From Reclinomonas americana ATCC 50394 (Eukaryota), in assembly GCA_048213135.1 (NCBI GenBank), contig PS015015.1, positions 1 through 63,412 on the forward strand: a stretch of 63,412 nt of DNA. The letters are read 5' to 3'. Under the pieces are notes generated by a model. It was not told where the DNA came from. It saw nothing but the letters and a program-made list of their open reading frames with translations, and made no database searches. Position 1 is the stretch's first letter. The number at the start of each line of letters is the position of its first letter. Shown here piece by piece: positions 847 through 62,600 of this stretch. The translations under genes were made by a program, and so were the position numbers.

Positions 847-2865
847 TTACGACAACAGCTGTGGAGCTCGGTCCAGCAGCTCCTCGATTTCGGCCTCGGA
901 GAAGGCCGAGCGCACGGCGGTCACTGTGTTGGCCCACGAGTCCGCATCGATTGGCTTGATGACGCGACGAATGTTGTGCAGGTACTGCTCGCGCTGCGGA
1001 GCATTCAGCGGCTCCAGTACGAACGTCAGCAGCTCGGTGGCCCACAATTCTCGATCCAGGTAGTAGATCTTTTCGAACGTCGGGCACGGCGCCGAGTCGC
1101 TGGGCGGCGTGAACAGCTTGCGCGCGGTCGGCATGAGGTTCGTCTCCTCCCACACAAAGTGGTCGAGCAAGTACGTCCGCACACCGGCGAATGACTCGCG
1201 CAGGCGCGTCGTCGACTCCTCACGCTCCGATGAGCCATCATGCACGGCCGCCATGGTGGCTGCCATGCGATTGAGTTCTGAGTCCGGCGCCTCCATCTCG
1301 TGGTGGTCGGTCGAGGCCTTGTCCGTCAGGTGCGGCGTGTCAGCATTCAGCAACGGGTACACGACGTCGTCCTCAAAGTGCCCGTGCAGGTGCAACAAGG
1401 TGATGAACTTGCGCCACACCTCCTGCGCCTCCTGCAGCACCGCGTTGTCGCTCAGCATCTCTGGCCGGTTGAGCATGTCGGTAAGGCGCTGCAGCCACGT
1501 GCGCATGGCCACGTGTTGCAAGAAGTTGGAGCTGAACGGCGGCTGGTACGGCACGTTGTTCTTGATCATGCGTCGCAGCTGCGCCTCGGTGATGCCGGCG
1601 GCCTCGTACAGTGGCTGCATGTGCTCGCGGGCCATGGCGGCGTACCGATGCACGTGTGTGAGCGTCGGCGGTACTGTGAGTGCGCGAACCCACGCGAGAA
1701 TGTGCAGGCGAGCGAGGGTCGGGATGAGCATGGCGTCGCAGAGAGTGAACGGGGCGCCAAAGGCAAACGGTCCCGCCGAGGTCGCCAGTCGGCCGTCCAG
1801 AGTGCGGAGGGCGGCTTGCAGCTTGGGAACCCACTCGGCCTAATTTGAGAGGAAGCAAAGGAGAGGAAGTGAGAAAAGAATGAAAACGAGAGAGAGAGAC
1901 ACATAATGGAGGCGAAGGCCGATCTCTCCCCGCCACGGCAGACAACTGAAGAATTCTCTCATCGATATTCTAACTTGGTGCGAGCCAAACATTCTCGACC
2001 TCTTCTACCACACCCTCTGCTCTCTTCTGTCTCGTGCTCTTCGCACCTGCATGCCGCTCGCCATCATTGTCCGACTGAACGCGGTGGTGAATTCGTTACC
2101 GACGAACTCGCAAAACTCCTCCAGCTCACCAGCCGGAATATCGGCCGGTCGCAGCGTCGGCTCCGGGTAAGTCCGTTCCAGCCACGCCAGCACGTCGGCA
2201 CTCTCGGTCAGCGTGCTGCCATCTCGCGTAATGACAAACGGCACAGTCTTGCCGGGATTCGCCGCCTGATACCACGCGGACTGTGACTCGTCGAGCGTGG
2301 CAACGTCGCGCCGGTCCACCTGCACGCCCTTGAAACGCGCCACCACCAGCACGCGGTACGAAAACATGCACGCCTTGGTGGTAAACATGATAAACGCAGT
2401 GCCCTCCACCGGCTCCGGAAGCGGGTGCAACACGACATTCCCCGCTGCCACTTGCTGAACCTGCTGCTGCGCAGCACCCTGCGCCTGAGAGGCCGTCGAC
2501 TGAGCATGTCCAGCAGCACTATGGGCCTGAGCCGAGGCCGACTGCACATGCTCTGCAGCTGCGTTGGCCGGCGCCGAAGCTGCATCCTGCACTTGCAATT
2601 GCTTTGCTGCGTCATTCGCATGCGACTGAGCGCGCTCAACTGCCGAATTCGCCTGAGCAGAGGCCGACTGCTGTGCACTGACTGCTGCGACGTTGGCTTG
2701 TTCGTGCGCCTCTTGCGCCACTTTCTCTGCAGCACCGCGTGCGTCGGTGACGACTGCGAGTGTGCGCGCATTCGTCATCAGCATGTGCGAGAATCAACAA
2801 CGTGCTTGGCGTGTGCGCGTTTCGTCCTCACCAGATGCGGCTTCCTTGGAGTGCAGACAGCCCAT
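847..2865 (-). CDS. N-acylated Cys-type glutathione S-transferase fused to a hemerythrin-like (HHE) domain, ~577 aa, 3 exons (2865-2832, 2753-2047, 1839-847)
   Basis: MGCLHSK start; GST-N motifs ACMFSYRV, NPGKTVP, LTESADVLAWLERTYP; GST-C LDGRLATSAGPFAFGAPFTLCDAMLIPTLARL; hemerythrin-like H..HGHFEDDVVYP..DHHE..DHFVWEE; both GT-AG introns keep the frame. Confidence 0.85.
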
Positions 2866-24500: not shown

Positions 24501-26512
24501 GCTGCAAGATACGCCTTTCTGACTGCTGTTTGGCGTGCAGAGACGGCCACACGTATCGTCGATGCCAGTGTGCGGTTACGCTGTGTACAAGCGGCGTGTG
24601 TGGCACACATTGGTGCACTGAAGGCCCATCAGGTGTCTCCATCTGCACTGTTGGGCGAGTGCTGGATGATGCTCGACGAGGCTACGGTGCGGATCGTACC
24701 GCTTCTTGTTTGTTGCTCTCTTTGGCACCACTGACGAATCACGTGACGCACGCACAGGAGGACATGCCGGAACTATGGCTGGCCGTCATGACCACATTGT
24801 GGTACTGTCAGGCGCACTCGGACGACGAAAATGAACGCAGAGCGGCAACCGGTGCGTGGATCGAGTTGCAGCAGGTGCGCCCACGCCCACGACGCGGTCG
24901 AAAAGGCGATGTGGAAGACGAGGAGGCGTCACTGCCGCTGCCATTTTTGTGGATCACCATGGAGCAGGCGTCGATACGCGGATCGCTGCAAGAGGCTGCC
25001 GTCGCCTTTGGCAGCATCCTCGATCTCTCGTCAGCAGGCCGACTCACGGTGTCGTCTGAGGTGCCGTTGCTTCGCGAACCGTGGCTCACGTCACGTGCCC
25101 TGGCCTCTGTCACCTTTGTGCACCTCGGAAACTTTACGGCCGCACGGGAACTCGCCACTCGCTGGTGGGTAACGAGTGAGCGTCTTATCTCTGCAAATAG
25201 CAGCTTCTCACCTCTCCGTGGTGCGTCGTGTCATGCACAGTCAACAAGAGATGCACGGCAGTGCATCGCAGCCGCCGTCGATCCAGAGCGCGCACTCGCC
25301 CACCGTGATGCACGCAACACTGTTGGTGGCCTACACACTGGCTTCACTCGGCGAGTGGTCCGCCGTTCGGCAGTGCGCGGTGGCCGGCATTGTCGCCTCG
25401 CGAAGGCACCACTGGCACACGTGGCGTCGTGCCTTTCTGCATTTCGGTCTCCTCACCGAGTACCTTCGTCGCCTCTCTGGAGGTGCGTGCAGTGAGGGTG
25501 GTGCGCCGTGTGACTCGCCGTTTCGTTGACTGCTCACTGCGCATTCGCAGACGTGGCAAGTGCAGCCGTGGAGAGTGGCGTGGCGTCGGAGCTGTTTGTG
25601 GAAGATGGTGACGACCGGCGCGCCGTTCTCCGTCGCATGTTGGACAACGTGTCGCTGTTGAAGGGCACCCAGGTGCACATCCTTCCTTCCACAATTGCAG
25701 TGTGCTGCCTATTATATCTGACACCACATGCGCAGCTTTCCTTGTGGCTGGCCCCAAGCATGGCGGACGTGCTGGTTCGCGAGGACTTTTTGAGTACGGC
25801 ACAGGATTTGCTGCTGGAGAACATGGCGATCGCCACTCGCTGCGAATGCTCGCACCTTCCGCGGGCCATTTTCATGATGCGCCTCAGTCACGCCTCAGCG
25901 GTGCGACTGTTGCACGCCATTGACGATTCGTATGACGCCACTCTGGTAGACACTGGCGACTGGAGCACGTGTGTTTTCTCGGCCTCGGAATGGTACGACA
26001 CGTATCGCGTGCTGCGCGACGGCCTGCAGCAGTGCGACAGCGAGGTGCAGTCGCCGCTCACTACCAGTGTGCGGTTTGTGTTGACGGTGTGCGTTCTGGT
26101 GTGGTGGTGTGCCTATCGATGCGCCACTGAGCAAGACGTGCTGGCCAAGTCCACCACTGGCAGCAAGGTCTGTGTGTTCTCCAGTCGTTGTTGGTTTTCA
26201 GCTTGCGTGCCTCCCCATTCACACTCTTCTCGTGGTGGCGGCACACAGAAACGACGACGTCGCCATGTGCCGTCCATGGAGATGGACGACTCGATGATTG
26301 AGGATGCATGGGGGTCGCAGCCGGTACCGCTGCAACACTTGCGTGGCGAGTTGATGCGTGACCAGGTTGTCGACTTTGACGACATCAGTGGCCTGCGTCA
26401 CCTCAAGTGGATGCACTTGACGCGATCGCTGTTGTCACAGATGGCCACGCCATTCTCAAGCATCGGCACACGCGCAAACGGTGCACGTGGAAAACACGGG
26501 GAACAATACTAA
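18556..26512 (+). CDS. Soluble adenylyl cyclase (ADCY10)-like protein: Ser-rich N-terminus, two degenerate class III cyclase domains, AAA/STAND P-loop domain, helical C-terminus
   Basis: EFGGDLL..LSVLF; GTLCCSLVGGVHGDW; YALFGL; SVGVSSGRTQVMHVGPNERRVLLLVGTAV; TVGREAEL...VVALCGAPGCGASSLL; LFPRAHLMDASS; many GT-AG introns. Confidence 0.75.
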
Positions 26513-26651: not shown

Positions 26652-29004
26652 TCATGCTTTCGGGAACGCAGTGCCGGGCTTGGGAAGCGCCGGCGCAGCT
26701 GGTGGCTGTGCACGGCGTAACCGAGCTGAGGTGGGAGAAAGAGACTGAAGGTGAGCAATTTGCTTCATCATTTGTTTGCCCACGCAGCAGAGCGACACAC
26801 CTTGGCACTTGCCCACCGCCTTCACCAACTGGTCTGGTGCAGCGGACGCACCAAAGTCGCCGCTGTCACAAATGTTGACCAGCTGCTCGTACTTGTAGAT
26901 GAAGAAACGAGCCTGCTGGCACTGCCGAGCCGCAATTGCTGACATTTGTGCGCGTGGGCACACAATTGACTCCATGCGCTTCAGTCCAAACAACCGCCGT
27001 CGCACGCGATGGCAGTCGGGTGTCGGATATTCAGGAATCACTGGTTCCGCTGGCTTGGGTGCCTGCGGCATCGGCGGTGGCGGTGGCATGTACGGGAATG
27101 GCATTGGCTGGTACGGGAACGGCATCTGCAGAAGTAGAAAGTGAGCAGCCGAGTATACGGCACGCGCAGATGAGAGAGCACAGCAGACTCACCTGCGGTG
27201 AAGGGTCGTCCATCGGGGGAAGCCGGTCGATCGCTGCGTCGCAAGCACGTGAGACACACTTATTGATCACTGCACGTTTGGGAAGGCAAAAAACAACTCA
27301 CGTGCAATACCGAGACGGCAGCGGCGGTACATGGAACGCAGGCGCTGCACGTGCTGCTGGAGGTACACGCATCGGCGGCTCGGCGGGAAGTCCGAGCACA
27401 CGAAGCGCGCTCGGCGGCGAGCCTCGGTCAGGTGACCGCGGATCAGACCGCAGGCGGGCACCATACCGCCGTCGGCGTCACCGTCACTGGGACCGAAGCG
27501 GCTGCGGCTGCGACGGCGGCGCCAGCGACGCTCTTGGTCGTTGTCGAAATCGCCGTCATCTCGTCGTGGGCGGCGGCGACGGCGGAGATCGAGTTCGCCG
27601 CGCTCACGCGCACGACGAATCGCACGGCGGACGGCACGACGGGCAATGCGATTCACGACCCGGCGCAGCCATCGCTTGCTCGGCCGCGAGCGGCAGCGGG
27701 GCTTGGGAGCAGCGGGTGCTGGCTCCTCCGGCTCTGATTGCGGCTTTGGCTCCGGTTCCGGCTCAGGCTGCTTGGCGGGTCGAGGCTGACGTTGGGGTTC
27801 CGGCTGTGGCTCCGGCTCATTGTCACGAATGTCAATCACCGCACCACTGTCGCCCAAGCCATTGCCGTTGTCGTCCGAGAGGCGTGGCATCCGTCGGCGA
27901 ATGCGGACTGTGCGTAGGTGCGTCGTCAGACTAACTGCAAAGAGAACGGGGAGAAAATAACACTCGGCGACACGTACCGAATCCACTGTCGTCATCGGCG
28001 ACGGCGCGGAACGATCGAGCACCAAAGCACGCCTGTCGGCGGTGAATCAGTGCACCCGTCAGCATGCCGCGCAGTCGGTGGCACACGCGGAAAGCGATCG
28101 AGGAGCGATCCTTCAGGCTGCAGGCACCGCGGGCCACACGACGGAGGAGGCGAATGCGGACGCTCAGCTTGCGGCACACAGCCGGTGCGCGACGAGAACG
28201 GCGGCGAGAGCGCACGCGCTCGTCCACAATGATCACTGTGTGTGTGAGAGAGGGAGAGATTCACAGTGAGCGCGAGTGGCGTCTGGGGAGTCGACACCCA
28301 AAAAAAGGTACACACCGGGCGAGTCAATGTCGCCTCCGCGACGGCATCGATTGCGGAGGCGGCGATTGGCGGCACGGCATCGGCGCAGCAATCGCTTGCA
28401 CTGAGGTGAGCCACCGGCACCGCGTCGACGGCATGCGCGACCTGCCACACGACGAACTCGTCGCAGGCGACGCGACAGGCGACCGCAACGGCCACGGGGT
28501 TGCTCGATGTCGTCATCCTGGTCCACGTCGTCGCTGTCGCCCGCATCACCACGGAAGCGACGCATGCGTCGAGAGCGGCGCGAGCGACGAGCAAAGCGAC
28601 CGTTGGCGTTGCTGTCGTCGTCATCGTCGCCAAAGTCGCCGTCCACATTGCGGAGGCGACGGCGCATGCGGCGGCTGGAAGCACGGAGGCCGCCACGACG
28701 AGAATCACCAGCGGCGTCATCATCGCCGCCATCCACGTCACCGTCAATGTCGTCGAGGCGACGGCGCAAGCGACGAAGCAGTCGGCGCTGGCGGCGGCGA
28801 CGCGGAACCTCCACATCGTCGTCATCAGCATCGACCGCGCGGCGTCGAATCCGGCGACGGCGCAGCGGGGCATCGGGATTCGCTCCACTGTTGTCGTTGT
28901 CACCGTTGTCGTTGCTGTTGGCATCGTCACGCGCAGGCGCAGATTGCTCTGCCTGCTGCGATTGCTGCGGCCTGTCGCCCTCAGCAGTAGGGGCTGCGAG
29001 GCAA

Positions 29005-29072
<68 letters not shown>

Positions 29073-32000
29073 GACGACGACGACGACGACGACGAACGAA
29101 CGAACGTAACGTAACGAAACGAAACGAAACGGAAACGGAAACGGAACGGAAACGGAACCGGTAAACCGGTAACCGGTAACCGGGTAACCGGGTAACCCGG
29201 GTACCCGNNNNNNNNNNNNNNNNNNNNNNNNNNNNNNNNNNNNNNNNNNNNNNNNNNNNNNNNNNNNNNNNNNNNNNNNNNNNNNNNNNNNNNNNNNNNN
29301 NNNNNNNNNNNNNNNNNNNNNNNNNNNNNNNNNNNNNNNNNNNNNNNNNNNNNNNNNNNNNNNNNNNNNNNNNNNNNNNNNNNNNNNNNNNNNNNNNNNN
29401 NNNNNNNNNNNNNNNNNNNNNNNNNNNNNNNNNNNNNNNNNNNNNNNNNNNNNNNNNNNNNNNNNNNNNNNNNNNNNNNNNNNNNNNNNNNNNNNNNNNN
29501 NNNNNNNNNNNNNNNNNNAGAGAGAGAGAGAGAGTAGAGAGAGAGAGAGAGAGAGACTCGAGTCAGCAGCAGTGGAACAACAATACTGAGAACAAAGGAG
29601 AGACGCGCAACTGTCAGCGGGGCGACCGCGGCACTTGTTGAGCCGGATCTTGAAGGCGGCAATGTCGGCCTTGAGCTCGTGGCACGCACTGGCCTCTTGC
29701 AGCGAGTCGCGCGAGTACGGGCAGTGCAGCTTGGCGCGCTCGCGGAAACGGCGAATGGCAGCTCGCAGCTTGCGGCACTTGCGGCCGCCGCGAGAACGAC
29801 GGCGCGCTGCAATGAGCCAGATGGGTGGTCAGACACCAACAACAGGAGCGACGACGATAACAACAACAAGCAAGGGCACACCAACCTCGCTTATTGCGTC
29901 GCACACCGCTGCCGGCGGCGTTGTCGTCGCCGTCGTCGCCATCTCGGCGGCTGCGGCGCTTGGCACCACACTTGGCGTTATCGCCCTCTTCGTCGCCGTT
30001 GCGGCGAGATCGACGGCGACGACCTCGGCGAGACACCTTCTTGCCGCTGTCGTCATCTTCATTGTTCTCGTCGTCGTCGTCGTCGTCACGGCGACGGCTG
30101 CGGCGACGGCGTTCGGAAGCGTTCAGCATCTGCTCGGCCTGCTTCATCTCCTCCGCCTCCTCCTCCTCTTGCTGTGCGTCTTCGTCCACTGCAAATGTGA
30201 CCACAGCACGTGAATGATAGGGGGGGCTAACAGGGCACGGAGAATGGTGGCGGGGAGACGCACCGTCGACTCCGTTCTCCACGGTTTGCGTGTCGACCTG
30301 GTCCTGCTCCTGCTGCTGTTGTTGCATAGCAGCAAACGGCAGTGGAGCAAGGGTCACTGCGTACGGCAAGACAAGGAGGTCAGTACGCAAGCGTGGTTGC
30401 GTGCACCGTGCGACTGGTACTCACCAGGCGCCTCTCCGTCCATTTGTTCATCTGCAATAATACCCACCGCGAGATCAGTTACAAGACCGCTGCTGCTGGC
30501 ATTCGAGCGAGGGAGACGCAACAGGCGGCAACCAGCGTCAGAGGCATGAGATTCGTGTTGAGGTTGTTGAGCTTCATGGCTGCGGCGGCAATGGAGGGTC
30601 AGTCAGCCATCAAAACGGCGAGGGAAAACCATTATTAACACAACAAACCAGTGTGAGCATTGATGAGGTTGAGGCGAGCGTTCTCTGTTGCGTGCAGCGA
30701 GTCAGAACAAGTCCGGTATCAGTCACAGAAAGAGGGATGATGCAGCTCACCAGTTTGAAGACGCAGGTGCTCCGCAAGCGACACTGTATTATTGCACACG
30801 GTACACAGTGAGAAACTGGAATACAGGATACAAGCAGTGTCCGCCAAATACGCAACAGAAATTGCGAGTCTCACGGCGGCGAGCAGCGCGCAGGCCGGCC
30901 ACAGCGGCACGCAAGCGACGGCACTTGGTCTTGGCGACATTGGACTGCGGCAACAGACAGCATTTGAGTTACTCATCACGTGAGGGAAAATCATGTCGTC
31001 ACTCTACAAACCTTGCGCTTGCACGTGCGCTTCGTCGTCTTGCGAAGTACCTTCAGCGCGCACTTGTAGATCCTGCCGCACGTCTTCTTGCGCGAGCATT
31101 TCTTCAGGCGTTTCTGTTGCACGGCAAGCACCACGAGTGAGCAGTTGGCGGGGATGCGCACAACAACACCTTGCGCAACTGAGATGCGAGCAGAGATGGC
31201 ACGCTTCGGGCTCTTCTTGCGCAGGCGCTTGGCCACTGCGTGGCGCACAAAAAACAGCAAACGTGAATCCTTCGAGTGGGGTTGCACGTACACGTACACG
31301 CAAGTCAACGTACCTCGGCGGACGACCTTGCGGCACCGCTTGCTTGCTCGCTTCGCCTTTCGGGCTTTCCTCGCCCTCGCCCTCGCCCTCGCCTTGCGCC
31401 TCTTTTCGGCTTCGGAGTCACTCTCGTCATCGTCGCCGTCTTCGCCATCGCCACCGCGGCGTCGGCGGCGGCGACGGAGGCCCTTGCTGTCGCCATCCTC
31501 GCCGTCGTCTTCACCGTCGCCACCACGGCGCTTGCGAGCGGCACCCTTGCCGCCCTCCTCGCCGTCGTCTTCACCGTCGCCTCCGCGGCGCTTGCGAGCG
31601 GCACCCTTGCCACCTTCCTCGCCGTCGTCTTCACCGTCGCCGCCGCGGCGCCTGCGAGCGGCACCCTTGCCGCCCTCCTCGCCGTCGACGTCGCCACTGC
31701 GACTCTTCCCGACACCGCCCTTCTTCTTCTTGTCGGCAGCGTCGTCATCGTCGTCGTCATCATCACCACCGCGACCGGCGGCTCGGCGCTTGCCGGCGTC
31801 GCCTCGGCGTCCGCCGCTCTTCTTCTTGCCGTCCTCGGCATCGTCGTCGTCGTCACCGTACTTGTCGACGGTCTTGCGGAAATCGTCGAGCAGCTCAGCA
31901 GCCTCGCGCTGATCGCGCGGTGACCCGCGCAACGCCTCCTTCAGGTCCTTCATCAGCGACTTGTCAATGATGCGCTCCGTTGAGTATTGCACTGCACAGG

Positions 32001-33531
32001 CCATGGATGACGTGTGAGACAACAGTGCATGCAAGGCACTGACGGGGTAGAGGCGACCAACCGTCCTCGTCGCGGAGTGCCGGAATGTGTCGGCGCAAGT
32101 GGGCAGCTGCAAGTGGGGCGGTGCAAAGTGAGCGAGTGGCGAGCAAGTGAGCGATGGCACGGGGGATGGACACACGAACCGAAGCGGCGGAACGAGTCCT
32201 TGATGCCTGGGAGACACAAAAGACATGCATGTGAGTAAACAGCGAGGTGAAGCGGCGATGACTGCAACAGTAGGCGTACCGCAGCGGAGGGCAGCCGCTG
32301 TTATGCAAACGAAAAAAAATGAGCACAATCCATTCGAGCACATGCTTGAACTTGTCACACTACGCTCACCGAGACGATGCATGCGGACGCGCAGCAACTG
32401 GGTCTGCATCTTGGCCACGCGAGCGTTCTTCCGCAGCTCCTTGACGAGCTGACGCGTGCGCTTGGTAATGACCGAAGAGGGCTTCGGTCCGACCGCTGTT
32501 GTTCTCCACGAGTGAGCCACAACACAACCACACATATTGGACGGTGCGTTATTCGCACCTGCACGGGACATTGCCACACGCAAACGGCGATGGCAAATGG
32601 CGGCCTGACGCCGCGTCTGGCGCAGTTGGTCGACCACACGCTGCAGCGCCTGTCGCTGCCGGTCGACCAGACGACGCTCCTGATCGAACTGGCGAGCAAA
32701 GTTCTCCTGCGCCTCCTGGAACCGGCGCTCCAGCATTTGCAGGCGGCGCTGCGACAAGTGATACGCGCGACGCATCACTTGGTTGGCACGCTCGAGGCGC
32801 TGAGCATTGACCGTGGAGTCCTTATTGTTCCGGTTCACATCGCTCAGCTTGTCTCGCAGCTGCGTAATCCGCTGACGCATCGCCTCAATCTCTTGCACGC
32901 GGGCAGCCAGCTGCACACAGATAGATGAGTGAATCACCTCCACCAGGCGGACGACAGATCGTACACGGAGGAGACCTTTTCGCGCAAGTCTTGCAGCTGA
33001 CCGGCAAACGCATTCGTGCGCTGCGAGATGTCCTGCCCCGAGTTGCGCAGTCGCTGATTCTCCTCCCGCGCTCGCTGCAGATCAGCACGCGCCTCCGCCA
33101 GTTGCGACTTGACCACATACTGCTGCGTGCTCATCTGGCTCAACTCTCCCTGCGTCTCGCGCAGCCTCTGCTCCAACGAGCGCACACGCCGTGCGTTGGC
33201 CGACAGCACGCCCGCCCACGGGCCATCCGCCTCCGCCAAGTCTACACACAAGAGACGCGTCAGCCGTGCCACACAGTGCGCGCACACACACAGAGAGAGC
33301 GCAGGCAATGCAACTCTCAAACGTGGCCGCCGACACATCCGCCTCCTCCAGCAACACCAGCGGATCCACTCGCTCATCGTCTTCCACAAACTACAGCACA
33401 GACGCACACACGATGAACACACACACGCAGAGACTCTCCCTCACACTGAACCACCAAACCTCTGTCGCCTGCACACACGCACACAAGAGCAGTGCCAGCA
33501 GTGGCAGCAGCAGCCACTGCTGCGCCCTCAT
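26652..33531 (-). CDS. Very large secreted protein (roughly 1400-1500 aa, estimate): signal peptide, coiled coil, alternating Arg/Lys-rich and Asp-rich blocks, five 4-Cys modules
   Basis: MRAQQWLLLPLLALLLCACVQA signal peptide; an unbroken chain of frame-preserving GT-AG introns joins ORFs 32934-33422, 30991-32943, 29614-30390, 28233-28814, 27931-28236, 27267-28025 and 26652-27125; gap 29208-29518 falls in an intron. Confidence 0.75.
29008..29070. repeat. (GA)n microsatellite, intronic, flanking gap
   Basis: ~31 perfect units. Confidence 0.9.
31497..31690 (-). repeat. 60-bp coding tandem repeat, ~3.3 copies (GGDGEDDGEEGGKGAARKRR)
   Basis: gccgtcgtcttcaccgtcgc recurs at 31501, 31561 and 31621. 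Confidence 0.92.
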
Positions 33532-59662: not shown

Positions 59663-62600
59663 ATGTCGTCGCGGTCGCCTCCGCCTTTACTGGTGGGCGA
59701 CGGACGGTCCACGACTCCCACCTCGGTGACCTCGTCAGTGCTGCAGTCGCACTCGTCGCTGCCTCCGCAGGCTCCACTCGCCGCGCGTGGCAGTCTCGCT
59801 CTGGTGGGCTCTGCGGACACAGGCGCAGGCAGCAGCAGTGGTGGTGGTGGTGAGCGACCCAGCACACCAGTGAGTCAAGGCGCACACTCGGGAGGCGGCG
59901 GTGCAGCAGCAGCGCCTCAGCGCAGTGATTCGCTGCGTGGAACCCTGACGCAGGTTCGTCTCTCTCTCACACACACGCACTCTCCCATCCACACATGTGT
60001 GTCTCTTTCATCTCACAGGAGGAGTTGGAGGGCACCGATCGCTTTCTCCGCTTTGGCGATCGCATTGTGTTGATGCACGCCGACATGCGTGGCTTTATCA
60101 CCAGCGAAGGGTGTGTGTGTTGGGGAGAGAGAGCAGCTATGTGTGTGTTTGTTGTACTCACATCTAGTCATGTCTCGCAGCACGGTCGACGATCGCGTCG
60201 GTCTCACTGCCGGCACTCCCGGCAACCTGCCGCTCACGCCCTCTGGTGAGCTCCCTCCTCCATCTCCGTCTCCGCCATCTCCTCTTCGCGCTCACTGGGC
60301 GTCGCTGCGCAGATGTGGTGTACGAGTTGACTCCGATCACCTCGTACAAGGCGCAGTCGGCCTTTACGCGGCGCCTGAAGAAGGCCATTGATGACTTTGC
60401 GCCGGATCTCACGGCAGTCGGTCGCGCCGAGGTGCTGCGCTCGTTTGATGCGCGCAGACCGCCTCCGTTCCTGCGAGTGGTGCGTTCGCTCGTCCATGTC
60501 TGTGTGCGTGTGTGCCTGATATCTACGCTGCTCACCGCATTGCCCAACAGGATCAACACGAGGAGCGCCGCCTGGAGGAAGTCGGGGACGCCAACGACAA
60601 GATCGGTTCGTTCAACCTGGGCCAGATTGTCGGCACGTCGCTCGAGCTGTACAAGCGGCGTCTCGAGGGCCAGTCGAAGAGTCGCACGCTGGAGGAGTTG
60701 ATGGAGTTGCAGGTGCGCTGTTGTGCATGAGATAGTGAGGGAGAGAGAAACAAAGGCGCTCATTCACCTCGTGGGCAGACTCGCGCCGAGTCCGAGCTGG
60801 CACAAAACAACGCCGAAGACGAGCGTGCGAACGGTCGACCGGTCACCTACGGCACTGTGGTGCAGCTGCGACACGTTCGCTGGGGTCACTACGTGACCGT
60901 GCAGAGCGACATTGCGGAGACGGATGCCGCGTGCACTCGTATTGCGCTGCAGCCGACGGCCAGTTCGCGCTCCTTCTTCGTCATCTCGGCCGGCAGTCGG
61001 TTCCGCGCCGAGGGCGAGCGCGTGCAGATTGGCGACCTGGTGTCGTTCCTCAACCGCAAGTTTCGTCTGTACATTCACGCCAGCCGGGCGGCGATACGCG
61101 ACCGCTTCCGTCGTCTCGAGGTCAACGGCTCCTTTGACGAGACACACTGGCTGCTGCTGCTGTACTCGCGAGCGCGTGCGGCTGGCGACGAGGACAAGCT
61201 GATGGCTGGCGACACGGTACGCATCTTTCATCCGCAGCGCGATGGCTACGTGGCGCGCGTCGTCGGTGCACCGGAGGATCTGTATGGTTTGTTGCGCGCA
61301 TACCTATGCTCTGTTGATGATGAAAGAGTCACCTCACCACCACCACCACCACCACCACCACCACCACCACCACCACCACCACAGTCTCCATCAACGAGCA
61401 GGAGAAATCGGAACTCTCGCGACCGATCCTGCCCGAGGCCGATTTCGAGATTGAGCGTGAGCTGCCGGTGGCCGGTGGATTGATGCGCTTCGGGCAGACC
61501 TTCCGCCTGCGTCACGTGCTCACCGGTGCGTATCTGCGAGTGGAGCCAAAGGTGGTGGACGAGTCGTTGCAGCCGGCGGACTGGTTCGGCGCCGTGGTTC
61601 GCGAACGGCGCTTCACTCGCGCCCACGTGCTGCGCGATCAGAGCGACGACGACGACGACGATGACGACTATGCAGGCGGCATGGGTGGCGACGGTGACTT
61701 GGACAGCCTCGGCCTTCCGCCGTCGCCGACGTCGCTAATGTCACCGGGAGCGACTGACGATGACGCGGCGCGCATGTTTGACGATGACGATGATGATGAG
61801 GGTGGTGGTGGCATGGTGGCCTCGATGAATCCCCTGCAGCGGAATCAGCGACAGAATTCCGCACGCACCCTTGGCGTCGAGAGGCGCCGATCCATTCGCG
61901 CATCGTCCACGTCCATGGAGATTGGCAAAGGTGTGTGTGTGTGTGTGTGTGCCTCGCCAGCGATTATGATGTATTGAGTCTAACGCCGTCATTTCCCCGC
62001 AGGCTATTTTGCTCGCCGCCGTCCGAGTGCTGTGGAGGCTGCAGAGCCGATCCCAGTCGTCGACGTGTCGGATCTGGTGGTACCGGTCAAGGTCCGTTTC
62101 TCCGACGACCGAGCGGATCCCAACTGCCTGTTTGCCTTTGCGCCGCTGCAGTTTGCGGTGCGTTTTTCTCGCATGGCTGTTCGCCGCGCGTACCAGCGTG
62201 ATTTCTCACTGGTGTGCATGACGCTGCGTACGATGCAGGCCGACGACGATGGTCGCAGCGTGGTGCGAGCCGATGCTCTCGTCAGTCTGCGACACGCCGC
62301 TACCGGTTTGTACCTGTCGAATGTCGAGTCACCGATTTGTTTCCGAGGCGTTTCGCGACGCAAGCACACGTCCGCCCCGGTGAGTCCTTCACCACCTCCA
62401 TCGGTCCACGCACAATCCTGACTCGCCTTTGTCCTCTCACGCAGCTGTGCCTGTCCACCATTCCCGATCCCAACACGGCATTCCGCGCGTCGCGAACACT
62501 GCAGAGCGATGTGCAGGATCTGTACATTACGACGCTCACCATTGGAGTTGCGGCGACGTGGTGGTGGTGGCAATCGTCAGCCGTCCTTACCCACTCACGT

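Follow-up and report, generated by a model that had tools for sequence, protein, structure and literature searches.

The stretch of DNA analysed here (the window) comprises 63,412 nucleotides (nt) of contig PS015015.1 from Reclinomonas americana ATCC 50394, and the locus under study occupies positions 26652..33531 of its minus strand, where a putative gene for a large protein with alternating basic and acidic blocks was recognized. Its central feature is a module of about 50 residues with four Cys, which is present five times (M1 to M5). These modules had been noticed in a previous interpretation made from the nucleotide sequence (the sequence-only reading), and translation of the intervals returned exactly the amino acid strings that had been quoted there:

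29777-29631, minus strand: module M1, net charge +8
28487-28344, minus strand: module M2, net charge +20, five Cys
28176-28027, minus strand: module M3, net charge +13
27452-27318, minus strand: module M4, net charge +9
27014-26868, minus strand: module M5, net charge +8

Sequence pattern of the modules

In all five translated modules the Cys residues follow the order C-x17-C, a linker of 8-12 residues and C-x16/17-C, in agreement with the near-identical spacing that had been claimed; the extra (fifth) Cys of M2 sits within helix 2. The Cys spacing by itself is weak evidence, because a strict regular expression for it, run on the six frames of the window, returned nine matches, namely the five modules and four unrelated sequences. 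Additional regularity was revealed when the residues were counted from the first Cys of each helix: in both helices positions 0, 3, 7 and 10 are hydrophobic in 5/5 modules and position 14 in 4/5, and the positions between the hydrophobic ones are mostly occupied by Arg or Lys. Judged from this arrangement, positions 0, 3, 7, 10, 14 and 17 correspond to the hydrophobic a/d core positions of the heptads in a two-stranded coiled coil, and the Cys residues lie in or beside this core.

Leave-one-out hidden Markov models (HMMs) of the modules were searched against the 1120 six-frame open reading frames (ORFs) of the window, and M1 (15.9 bits, E 7.7e-4), M3 (21.2 bits, E 1.5e-5) and M5 (16.7 bits, E 4.1e-4) were each recovered as the best non-training match. 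Between the modules the identity is 18-33% at the amino acid level, 0.33-0.44 at the nucleotide level and 0.16-0.44 at the third codon position. Since the pattern was kept while the DNA of the modules is at near random identity, it must have been held at the level of the protein, and the low identity implies that the duplications are old. This protein-level pattern can be considered good evidence that the module frames are translated, and the evidence within the sequence that the module is real and under constraint is good as well.

Predicted structure of the modules

The helical hairpin proposed by the sequence-only reading was modelled with AlphaFold2, using the five modules as alignment in the case of M1 and folding the last exon, which carries M5, alone; a two-helix hairpin was obtained for both M1 and M5. 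The M1 model has a predicted local distance difference test score (pLDDT) of 94.6 and a predicted template modelling score (pTM) of 0.75, its helices spanning residues 2-24 and 29-52. In the last exon the helices are located at residues 38-60 and 63-88, with pLDDT of 72-78 in 10-residue blocks over residues 41-80; the remainder of this exon was poorly predicted (mean pLDDT of the exon 59.1).

The pairing of the Cys residues was judged from the residue numbering and from the helix boundaries. The CX17C distance equals exactly five helical turns, and in the numbering of the alignment C1 and C4 sum to 56 and C2 and C3 to 57, therefore both Cys pairs fall on one hairpin axis, as in the CHCH proteins. 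This placement is geometrically compatible with the C1-C4 and C2-C3 clamps that had been expected, and we infer the disulfides themselves from it: C1-C4 would clamp the open end and C2-C3 the loop end of the hairpin, five helical turns apart. According to the model the folded module would be a rod with a nearly pure cationic surface, whose hydrophobic a/d face is buried between the two helices.

A shared zinc or other metal site for the four Cys residues was also considered, and it was excluded by geometry, since the hairpin is about 27 A long and carries one pair at each end. Zinc ribbons and treble clefs possess two closely spaced CX2C-type Cys pairs which meet at one metal site; the Cys residues within one helix of the modules are 17-18 residues apart, and no such close pairs were found.

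Search for relatives

The sequence-only reading had recognised no family with this Cys spacing, and none emerged from Pfam, the PDB sequences, the representative proteins, the ESM Atlas or the JGI metagenomes. When seven ORFs were compared with Pfam, nothing exceeded the cut-off (the best was a low-complexity Glu/Pro match of 31.2 bits, where the cut-off is 100), and at E ≤ 10 no Pfam family was returned for any module (0/5). The PDB sequences gave 0 matches at E ≤ 10. An HMM of the five modules, a search which had been suggested earlier, was run against 1,835,955,588 representative sequences and gave one match at E ≤ 0.001 (E 2.2e-7). This sole match is a tandem repeat protein of 493 amino acids (aa), which covers only positions 26-49 of the profile, does so seven times and has one Cys per unit; it was rejected. 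Since the product of the locus itself produced no match in this search, it must be absent from that library.

The ESM Atlas contained no usable match for the last exon, and a single-protein search of the JGI metagenomes yielded 139 pattern matches, of which 0 were confirmed. Word-based searches, covering near-length proteins only, were blank for the ORF of M4 and for a 696-aa ORF that includes the coiled coil and the acidic/basic region. At the level of structure, Foldseek found no match in the PDB at E ≤ 0.001. In the wide VIA-align search 1288 chains had Z ≥ 5 and the best Z was 8.4; all of these chains are generic antiparallel hairpins, and a family assignment from them was rejected for this reason. 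Among the matches listed in a full-text search for 'CX17C' there were GATA and LIM zinc fingers, leucine-rich repeats, cytochromes and similar proteins, and no twin hairpin was described there. We rate the module as structurally of a known kind but as a new family by sequence, and its charge-patterned setting as unusual.

Gene model

When splice sites were read from the sequence, a frame of 14 exons and 1507 codons could be assembled, which runs from ATG 33531 to TGA 26654-26652 without internal stop. Its parts, together with an assembly gap on which the sequence-only reading was silent, are the following:

33447..33531, minus strand: putative exon 1, ATG 33531, signal-peptide-like MRAQQWLLLPLLALLLCACVQA (judged by eye)
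32976..33241, minus strand: putative exon 2, start of the coiled-coil region, G+C at third codon positions (GC3) 0.81
32370..32910, minus strand: putative exon 3, coiled-coil region
31314..31991, minus strand: putative exon 4, phase 1-1, alternating acidic and basic blocks
31012..31235, minus strand: putative exon 5, Lys/Cys-rich block, net +26 in 75 residues, 5 Cys
30875..30944, minus strand: putative exon 6, KTKCRRLRAAVAGLRAARR, 70 nt, GC 0.71, GC3 0.74
30264..30356, minus strand: putative Gln-rich exon (Ed), phase 1-1, with an in-frame ATG near 30325
29886..30188, minus strand: putative exon, phase 1-1, poly-Glu, poly-Arg and poly-Asp blocks
29627..29806, minus strand: M1 exon, phase 1-1, 180 nt, from translation, splice reading and AlphaFold2
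29208-29518, no strand: assembly gap of 311 N, in the putative M1-M2 intron (633 nt)
28316..28993, minus strand: M2 exon, phase 1-1, 678 nt, a long Arg/Asp spacer and then the module
27978..28235, minus strand: M3 exon, phase 1-1, 258 nt, from translation and splice reading
27302..27934, minus strand: M4 exon, phase 1-1, 633 nt, Glu/Pro-rich and Arg-rich spacers and then the module
27193..27233, minus strand: putative mini exon, 41 nt, phase 1 to 0, Pro/Asp-rich
26652..27125, minus strand: last exon, a Pro-rich stretch, M5, a tail with three more Cys, and the stop TGA 26654-26652

All introns of the model are of the GT-AG type, with CAG acceptors in 12 of the 13 and GCAG in 11 of those; nine of them measure 43-80 nt, and the remaining four 205, 378, 518 and 633 nt. 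The exons have a GC of 0.59-0.71 and a GC3 of 0.63-0.83, the introns a GC of 0.46-0.60, and the flank past TGA 26654-26652 is AT-richer. GC3 by itself cannot fix the frame in the Arg/Asp region, since every first codon position there is G or C. Seven exons of the model are in phase 1-1, among them those of M1-M4, and M5 is carried by the last exon, which starts in phase 0. Our independent splice reading thus appears to agree with the earlier description, in which each module lay within one exon and M1-M4 were on phase 1-1 exons (180, 678, 258 and 633 nt).

At the 5' side of the model, exon 1 can be connected to exon 2 by several possible in-frame GT-AG links, and the intron between exons 2 and 3 is 65 nt long (AAG/GTCTCC at the donor, GTGTGCAG at the acceptor); the Pfam coiled-coil matches in the region of exons 2 and 3 stayed below threshold. 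Exon 4 includes a 60-nt tandem repeat (31491-31687, 3.3 copies), which encodes 20-residue GGDGEDDGEEGGKGAARKRR units. The Lys/Cys-rich block that had been placed at ~30900-31340 is present at about 31340-30875. Exon 5 holds an optional internal intron of 54 nt (31167-31114), and the frame stops at 30994 if its donor at 31012/31011 is not used. Exon 6 resembles helix 1 of M1, with weak HMM matches (9.2 and 7.9 bits), and may be a sixth half module. Further downstream, the M4 exon has an alternative donor 9 nt upstream.

In the 518-nt interval between exon 6 and exon Ed two candidate micro-exons were seen on the minus strand, 30783-30751 (33 nt) and 30684-30649 (36 nt), both in phase 1-1 with CAG acceptors and G/GT donors; they encode short Leu-rich helical segments without Cys. 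Between 30600 and 30430 two other candidates, mini exons of 47 and 27 nt, were rejected, their phases failing to connect to the next exon. The assembly gap is bordered by perfect (GA)32, (GAC)n and 5-17-nt repeats (29008-29207 and 29519-29556), and it probably reflects unassembled simple sequence.

Composition and spacers of the modelled product

The order along the modelled chain is a signal-like start, a coiled-coil region of about 270 residues, acidic/basic repeats, the Lys/Cys block and the module exons, between which there are spacers rich in Arg, Asp, Glu/Pro or Pro. The poly-Arg and poly-Asp spacers of the sequence-only reading were found again as Arg and Asp blocks, the product having 19.0% Arg, 9.2% Asp and 2.5% Cys. 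The numerous RxxR/RR sites were also recovered: compared with 500 shuffles there are 136 dibasic sites vs 88.8, 92 RxxR vs 54.0 and 37 R-x-[KR]-R motifs vs 13.0. The excess of RR and RxxR reflects the Arg blocks and not positioned sites. Between the modules lie spacers of 29 to at least 170 residues. In the flanks of the five modules no common processing or cleavage motif was found; the sequence leading into M4 is ...GGMVPA and that leading into M5 ...YPTPD, both without a basic site next to the module.

Comparison with known systems

The CHCH proteins (twin CX9C; Cox17, substrates of Mia40/CHCHD4) form a hairpin in the mitochondrial intermembrane space with one Cys pair per helix and with C1-C4 and C2-C3 disulfides. 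The modules share with them the helix-loop-helix, the Cys pair of each helix on the same face and the two expected inter-helix disulfides, which here would follow from the geometry, and the inner Cys residues are about 10 residues apart in CHCH and 8-12 in the modules. Unlike CHCH (PF06747), the modules have x17 and x16-17 instead of two CX9C (5/5), that is five turns vs about three, and no PF06747 match was obtained for any of them (0/5 at E ≤ 10). Furthermore, whereas a CHCH protein is one small, matrix-free import substrate, here there are five copies in an extremely Arg-rich protein of about 1500 residues with a signal-like start.

Saposin-like (SAPLIP) domains are bundles of four or five helices with six conserved Cys, and sometimes several are present in one precursor (prosaposin). 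They are similar to the modules in being small, helical and disulfide-stabilised as well as secreted, both of the last two features being presumed for the modules; in contrast to SAPLIP the modules have four Cys and two helices each, and no Pfam match. Blocks of opposite charge are known from the silaffins and silacidins of diatoms and from paired polycationic/polyanionic adhesive proteins, which carry a signal peptide and for which electrostatic assembly was proposed. The modelled product is comparable to these in its signal-like start and in its blocks of opposite charge, but it is distinguished by the predicted folded four-Cys hairpin module, and there is no sequence relation.

PMC7191063 describes the precursors of the plant alpha-hairpinins as a signal peptide followed by 2-4 or 5-7 hairpin modules with the Cys motif XnC1X3C2XnC3X3C4Xn. 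The alpha-hairpinins (N-terminal regions of vicilins, Tk-AMP-X) resemble the modules in the cationic helix-loop-helix with four Cys, in the C1-C4/C2-C3 connectivity, which is the one proposed here, and in the occurrence of several modules in one chain bearing a signal peptide, which at our locus would hold if the signal-like start is spliced to the modules as modelled (PMC7191063). Some alpha-hairpinins have a wholly hydrophilic surface and do not disrupt membranes (PMC7191063). Unlike alpha-hairpinins, none of the five modules has a CX3C pair; they are longer (~50 residues vs about 30-40), each end of the hairpin would be clamped, the spacers consist of long low-complexity stretches of Arg and Asp, nothing points to a plant as the source, and no sequence similarity was found. 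In the AlphaFold2 predictions of M1 and M5 the helix-loop-helix that characterizes CHCH and the two antiparallel helices that characterize the alpha-hairpinins are both found. Judged by sequence, the module is not a member of the CHCH or the alpha-hairpinin family, because the defining Cys motifs are absent and no profile matched.

Discussion

We infer, with a likelihood somewhat short of even, that a single transcript encodes a lineage-restricted, very basic secreted multidomain polyampholyte, whose cationic rods would bind polyanions and condense into a granule or extracellular matrix. In this model the modules would have been multiplied long ago via duplication of symmetric phase-1 exons; the chain would enter the secretory pathway, where the Cys clamps would oxidise. 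The linkers between the modules would be long and disordered, with blocks of poly-Arg/Lys alternating with poly-Asp/Glu, and the cationic rods (net +8 to +20), tethered on this charge-patterned chain, might bind polyanions, for instance acidic glycans, other acidic partners or, in trans, the Asp/Glu blocks of the protein itself. The outcome would be a dense matrix, e.g. the core of a secretory granule or extrusome, a wall, a scale or an adhesive.

Several observations weigh against this model. The exon boundaries were read from sequence, there is no orthologue for comparison, and the link from M1 to M2 crosses the gap of 311 N. The signal-like exon 1 is made of CTG-/TG-rich simple sequence and can be joined to exon 2 in more than one way; the stop at 30994 and the ATG near 30325 permit two genes. 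Neither M2 nor M4 was among the best nine matches of the leave-one-out HMM search in the 1120 ORFs. In the M1 model the apex given by the helix boundaries is about 3-4 residues off the apex implied by the Cys pairs. Furthermore, an Arg content of 19% is commoner in nuclear, nucleic-acid-binding proteins than in secreted ones.

The alternative arrangement of two genes is rather unlikely: an upstream gene with the signal-like start, the coiled coil, the acidic/basic repeats and the Lys/Cys tail would end at 30994 or at 30792-30790, and a second gene, starting without signal peptide at the ATG near 30325, would encode an intracellular Arg-rich module protein. Two genes would therefore remove the signal peptide from the modules; the mixed-charge module protein would probably be nuclear, its hairpins might bind nucleic acid or other polyanions, and its Cys residues would be reduced or serve in redox or cross-linking functions. 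The in-frame stop 15 nt past the donor of exon 5 is in line with this, as are the gap of 518 nt between exon 6 and Ed, which is far above the 43-80 nt of nine of the 13 introns, the in-frame ATG of exon Ed itself, the seemingly compact genome, with an ORF of the opposite strand ending 140 nt beyond the stop of the locus, and, for an intracellular location, the 19% Arg with its dense basic motifs. However, exon 6, which lies beyond the stop at 30994, looks coding (GC 0.71, GC3 0.74) and resembles helix 1 of M1, the donor of exon 6 and the acceptor of Ed are both in phase 1 and join without a stop, and the interval between these two exons can accommodate two more mini exons in phase 1-1 (30783-30751 and 30684-30649). 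Four strictly kept Cys residues at the ends of a hairpin are moreover a signature of oxidising compartments, as in the CHCH and alpha-hairpinin folds, and this also argues against an intracellular module protein. In the model the signal-peptide-like start at 33531 splices in frame to all five modules, and a single gene rather than two appears probable.

It was also proposed by the sequence-only reading that the modules could be released from a polyprotein as membrane-active peptides. In such a case the chain would be cut at basic sites in the secretory pathway, antimicrobial or otherwise bioactive hairpins would be liberated, and the acidic blocks would serve as neutralising propieces. The combination of a signal-like start with cationic four-Cys hairpins, the acidic blocks that adjoin the basic ones, and the basic motifs in numbers above those of the shuffles (dibasic 136 vs 88.8; R-x-[KR]-R 37 vs 13.0) all speak for this reading, and the multimodular alpha-hairpinin precursors of plants offer a precedent (PMC7191063). 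Nevertheless, the Arg blocks account for the basic motifs, no flank motif is shared by the five modules, and M4 and M5 have no adjacent upstream basic site; the spacers are of unequal length (29 to at least 170 residues), the modules are only 18-33% identical, and the hydrophobic face is buried in the core of the hairpin. Without a common flank motif and with the hydrophobic face buried, a cationic-rod matrix or polyanion binder is therefore favoured over a membrane-active polyprotein, and the missing flank motif together with the very unequal spacers likewise favours a multidomain protein over a regular polyprotein. We regard the polyprotein as improbable. The helical hairpin of the earlier proposal is thus supported and the release of membrane-active peptides is weakened, given the buried a/d face, the lack of a flank motif and the unequal spacers; the charge-complementary matrix, which had been offered as the other option, seems to fit better.

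That the locus is a non-coding artefact, produced by chance open frames in GC-rich, repeat-rich DNA or by the remains of a dead gene, is hardly credible: all six frames are indeed largely open in the Arg/Asp region, the Cys spacing alone gives four background matches in the window and no homologues were found, but the heptad and four-Cys pattern was kept fivefold despite near-random DNA identity, the leave-one-out E-values go down to 1.5e-5, the hairpin is confidently predicted (M1 pLDDT 94.6), and the stop-free frame of 1507 codons has uniform GT-AG/CAG sites and exons that are GC-richer than the introns.

If the gene is real and its product secreted, it would define a new helical-hairpin domain with disulfide clamps, readily accessible to synthesis and testing, whose clamp spacing of five turns is not seen in CHCH proteins or alpha-hairpinins and whose setting, a self-complementary Arg/Asp polyampholyte, is unusual. 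It would be a natural case of rigid polycationic rods on a charge-patterned tether, with a bearing on granule or matrix condensation or on the peptide defence of protists. A more far-reaching view, which we consider doubtful, is that the locus carries the founding 'twin CX17C/CX16C' cationic clamped-hairpin domain, multiplied via phase-1 exons and set in a secreted self-complementary polyampholyte that condenses by charge pairing into the core of a secretory organelle or an extracellular matrix in a little-studied lineage of protists, or is cut into a new class of hairpin peptides. As an intracellular Arg-rich protein it would be a lineage-specific oddity of modest interest. Under both views it is an orphan of a draft genome that seems to lack annotation.

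Other features of the window

The window has a G+C content of ~60% and contains nine runs of N; it belongs to a draft assembly. No Rfam match was found in it (zero matches), and 10 plus-strand ORFs at the locus have zero Pfam matches above cut-off. On the opposite strand a neighbouring open frame lies close to the stop of the locus, and two further places in the window have recognisable domains:

25514-26512, plus strand: open frame of 332 aa, ending 140 nt from the stop of the locus, without Pfam match
847-1839, minus strand: single unbroken ORF of 330 aa, GST C-terminal domain (32.9 bits) paired with a hemerythrin HHE domain (35.0 bits)
60731-61977, plus strand: N-terminal ligand-binding domain of the inositol trisphosphate (IP3)/ryanodine receptors (67.6 bits) and MIR domain (25.8 bits), on neighbouring ORFs in different frames

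The 332-aa frame suggests convergent genes and a compact genome. For the 330-aa ORF, whose pairing of the GST C-terminal and hemerythrin HHE domains is unusual, no homologue was found at E ≤ 1e-5 in a word-based search of near-length proteins only. The ORFs at 60731-61977 look like the 5' part of a split IP3 receptor-like gene that continues past the end of the window. These split ORFs and the short GT-AG introns needed throughout the locus identify the source as a eukaryote with introns.

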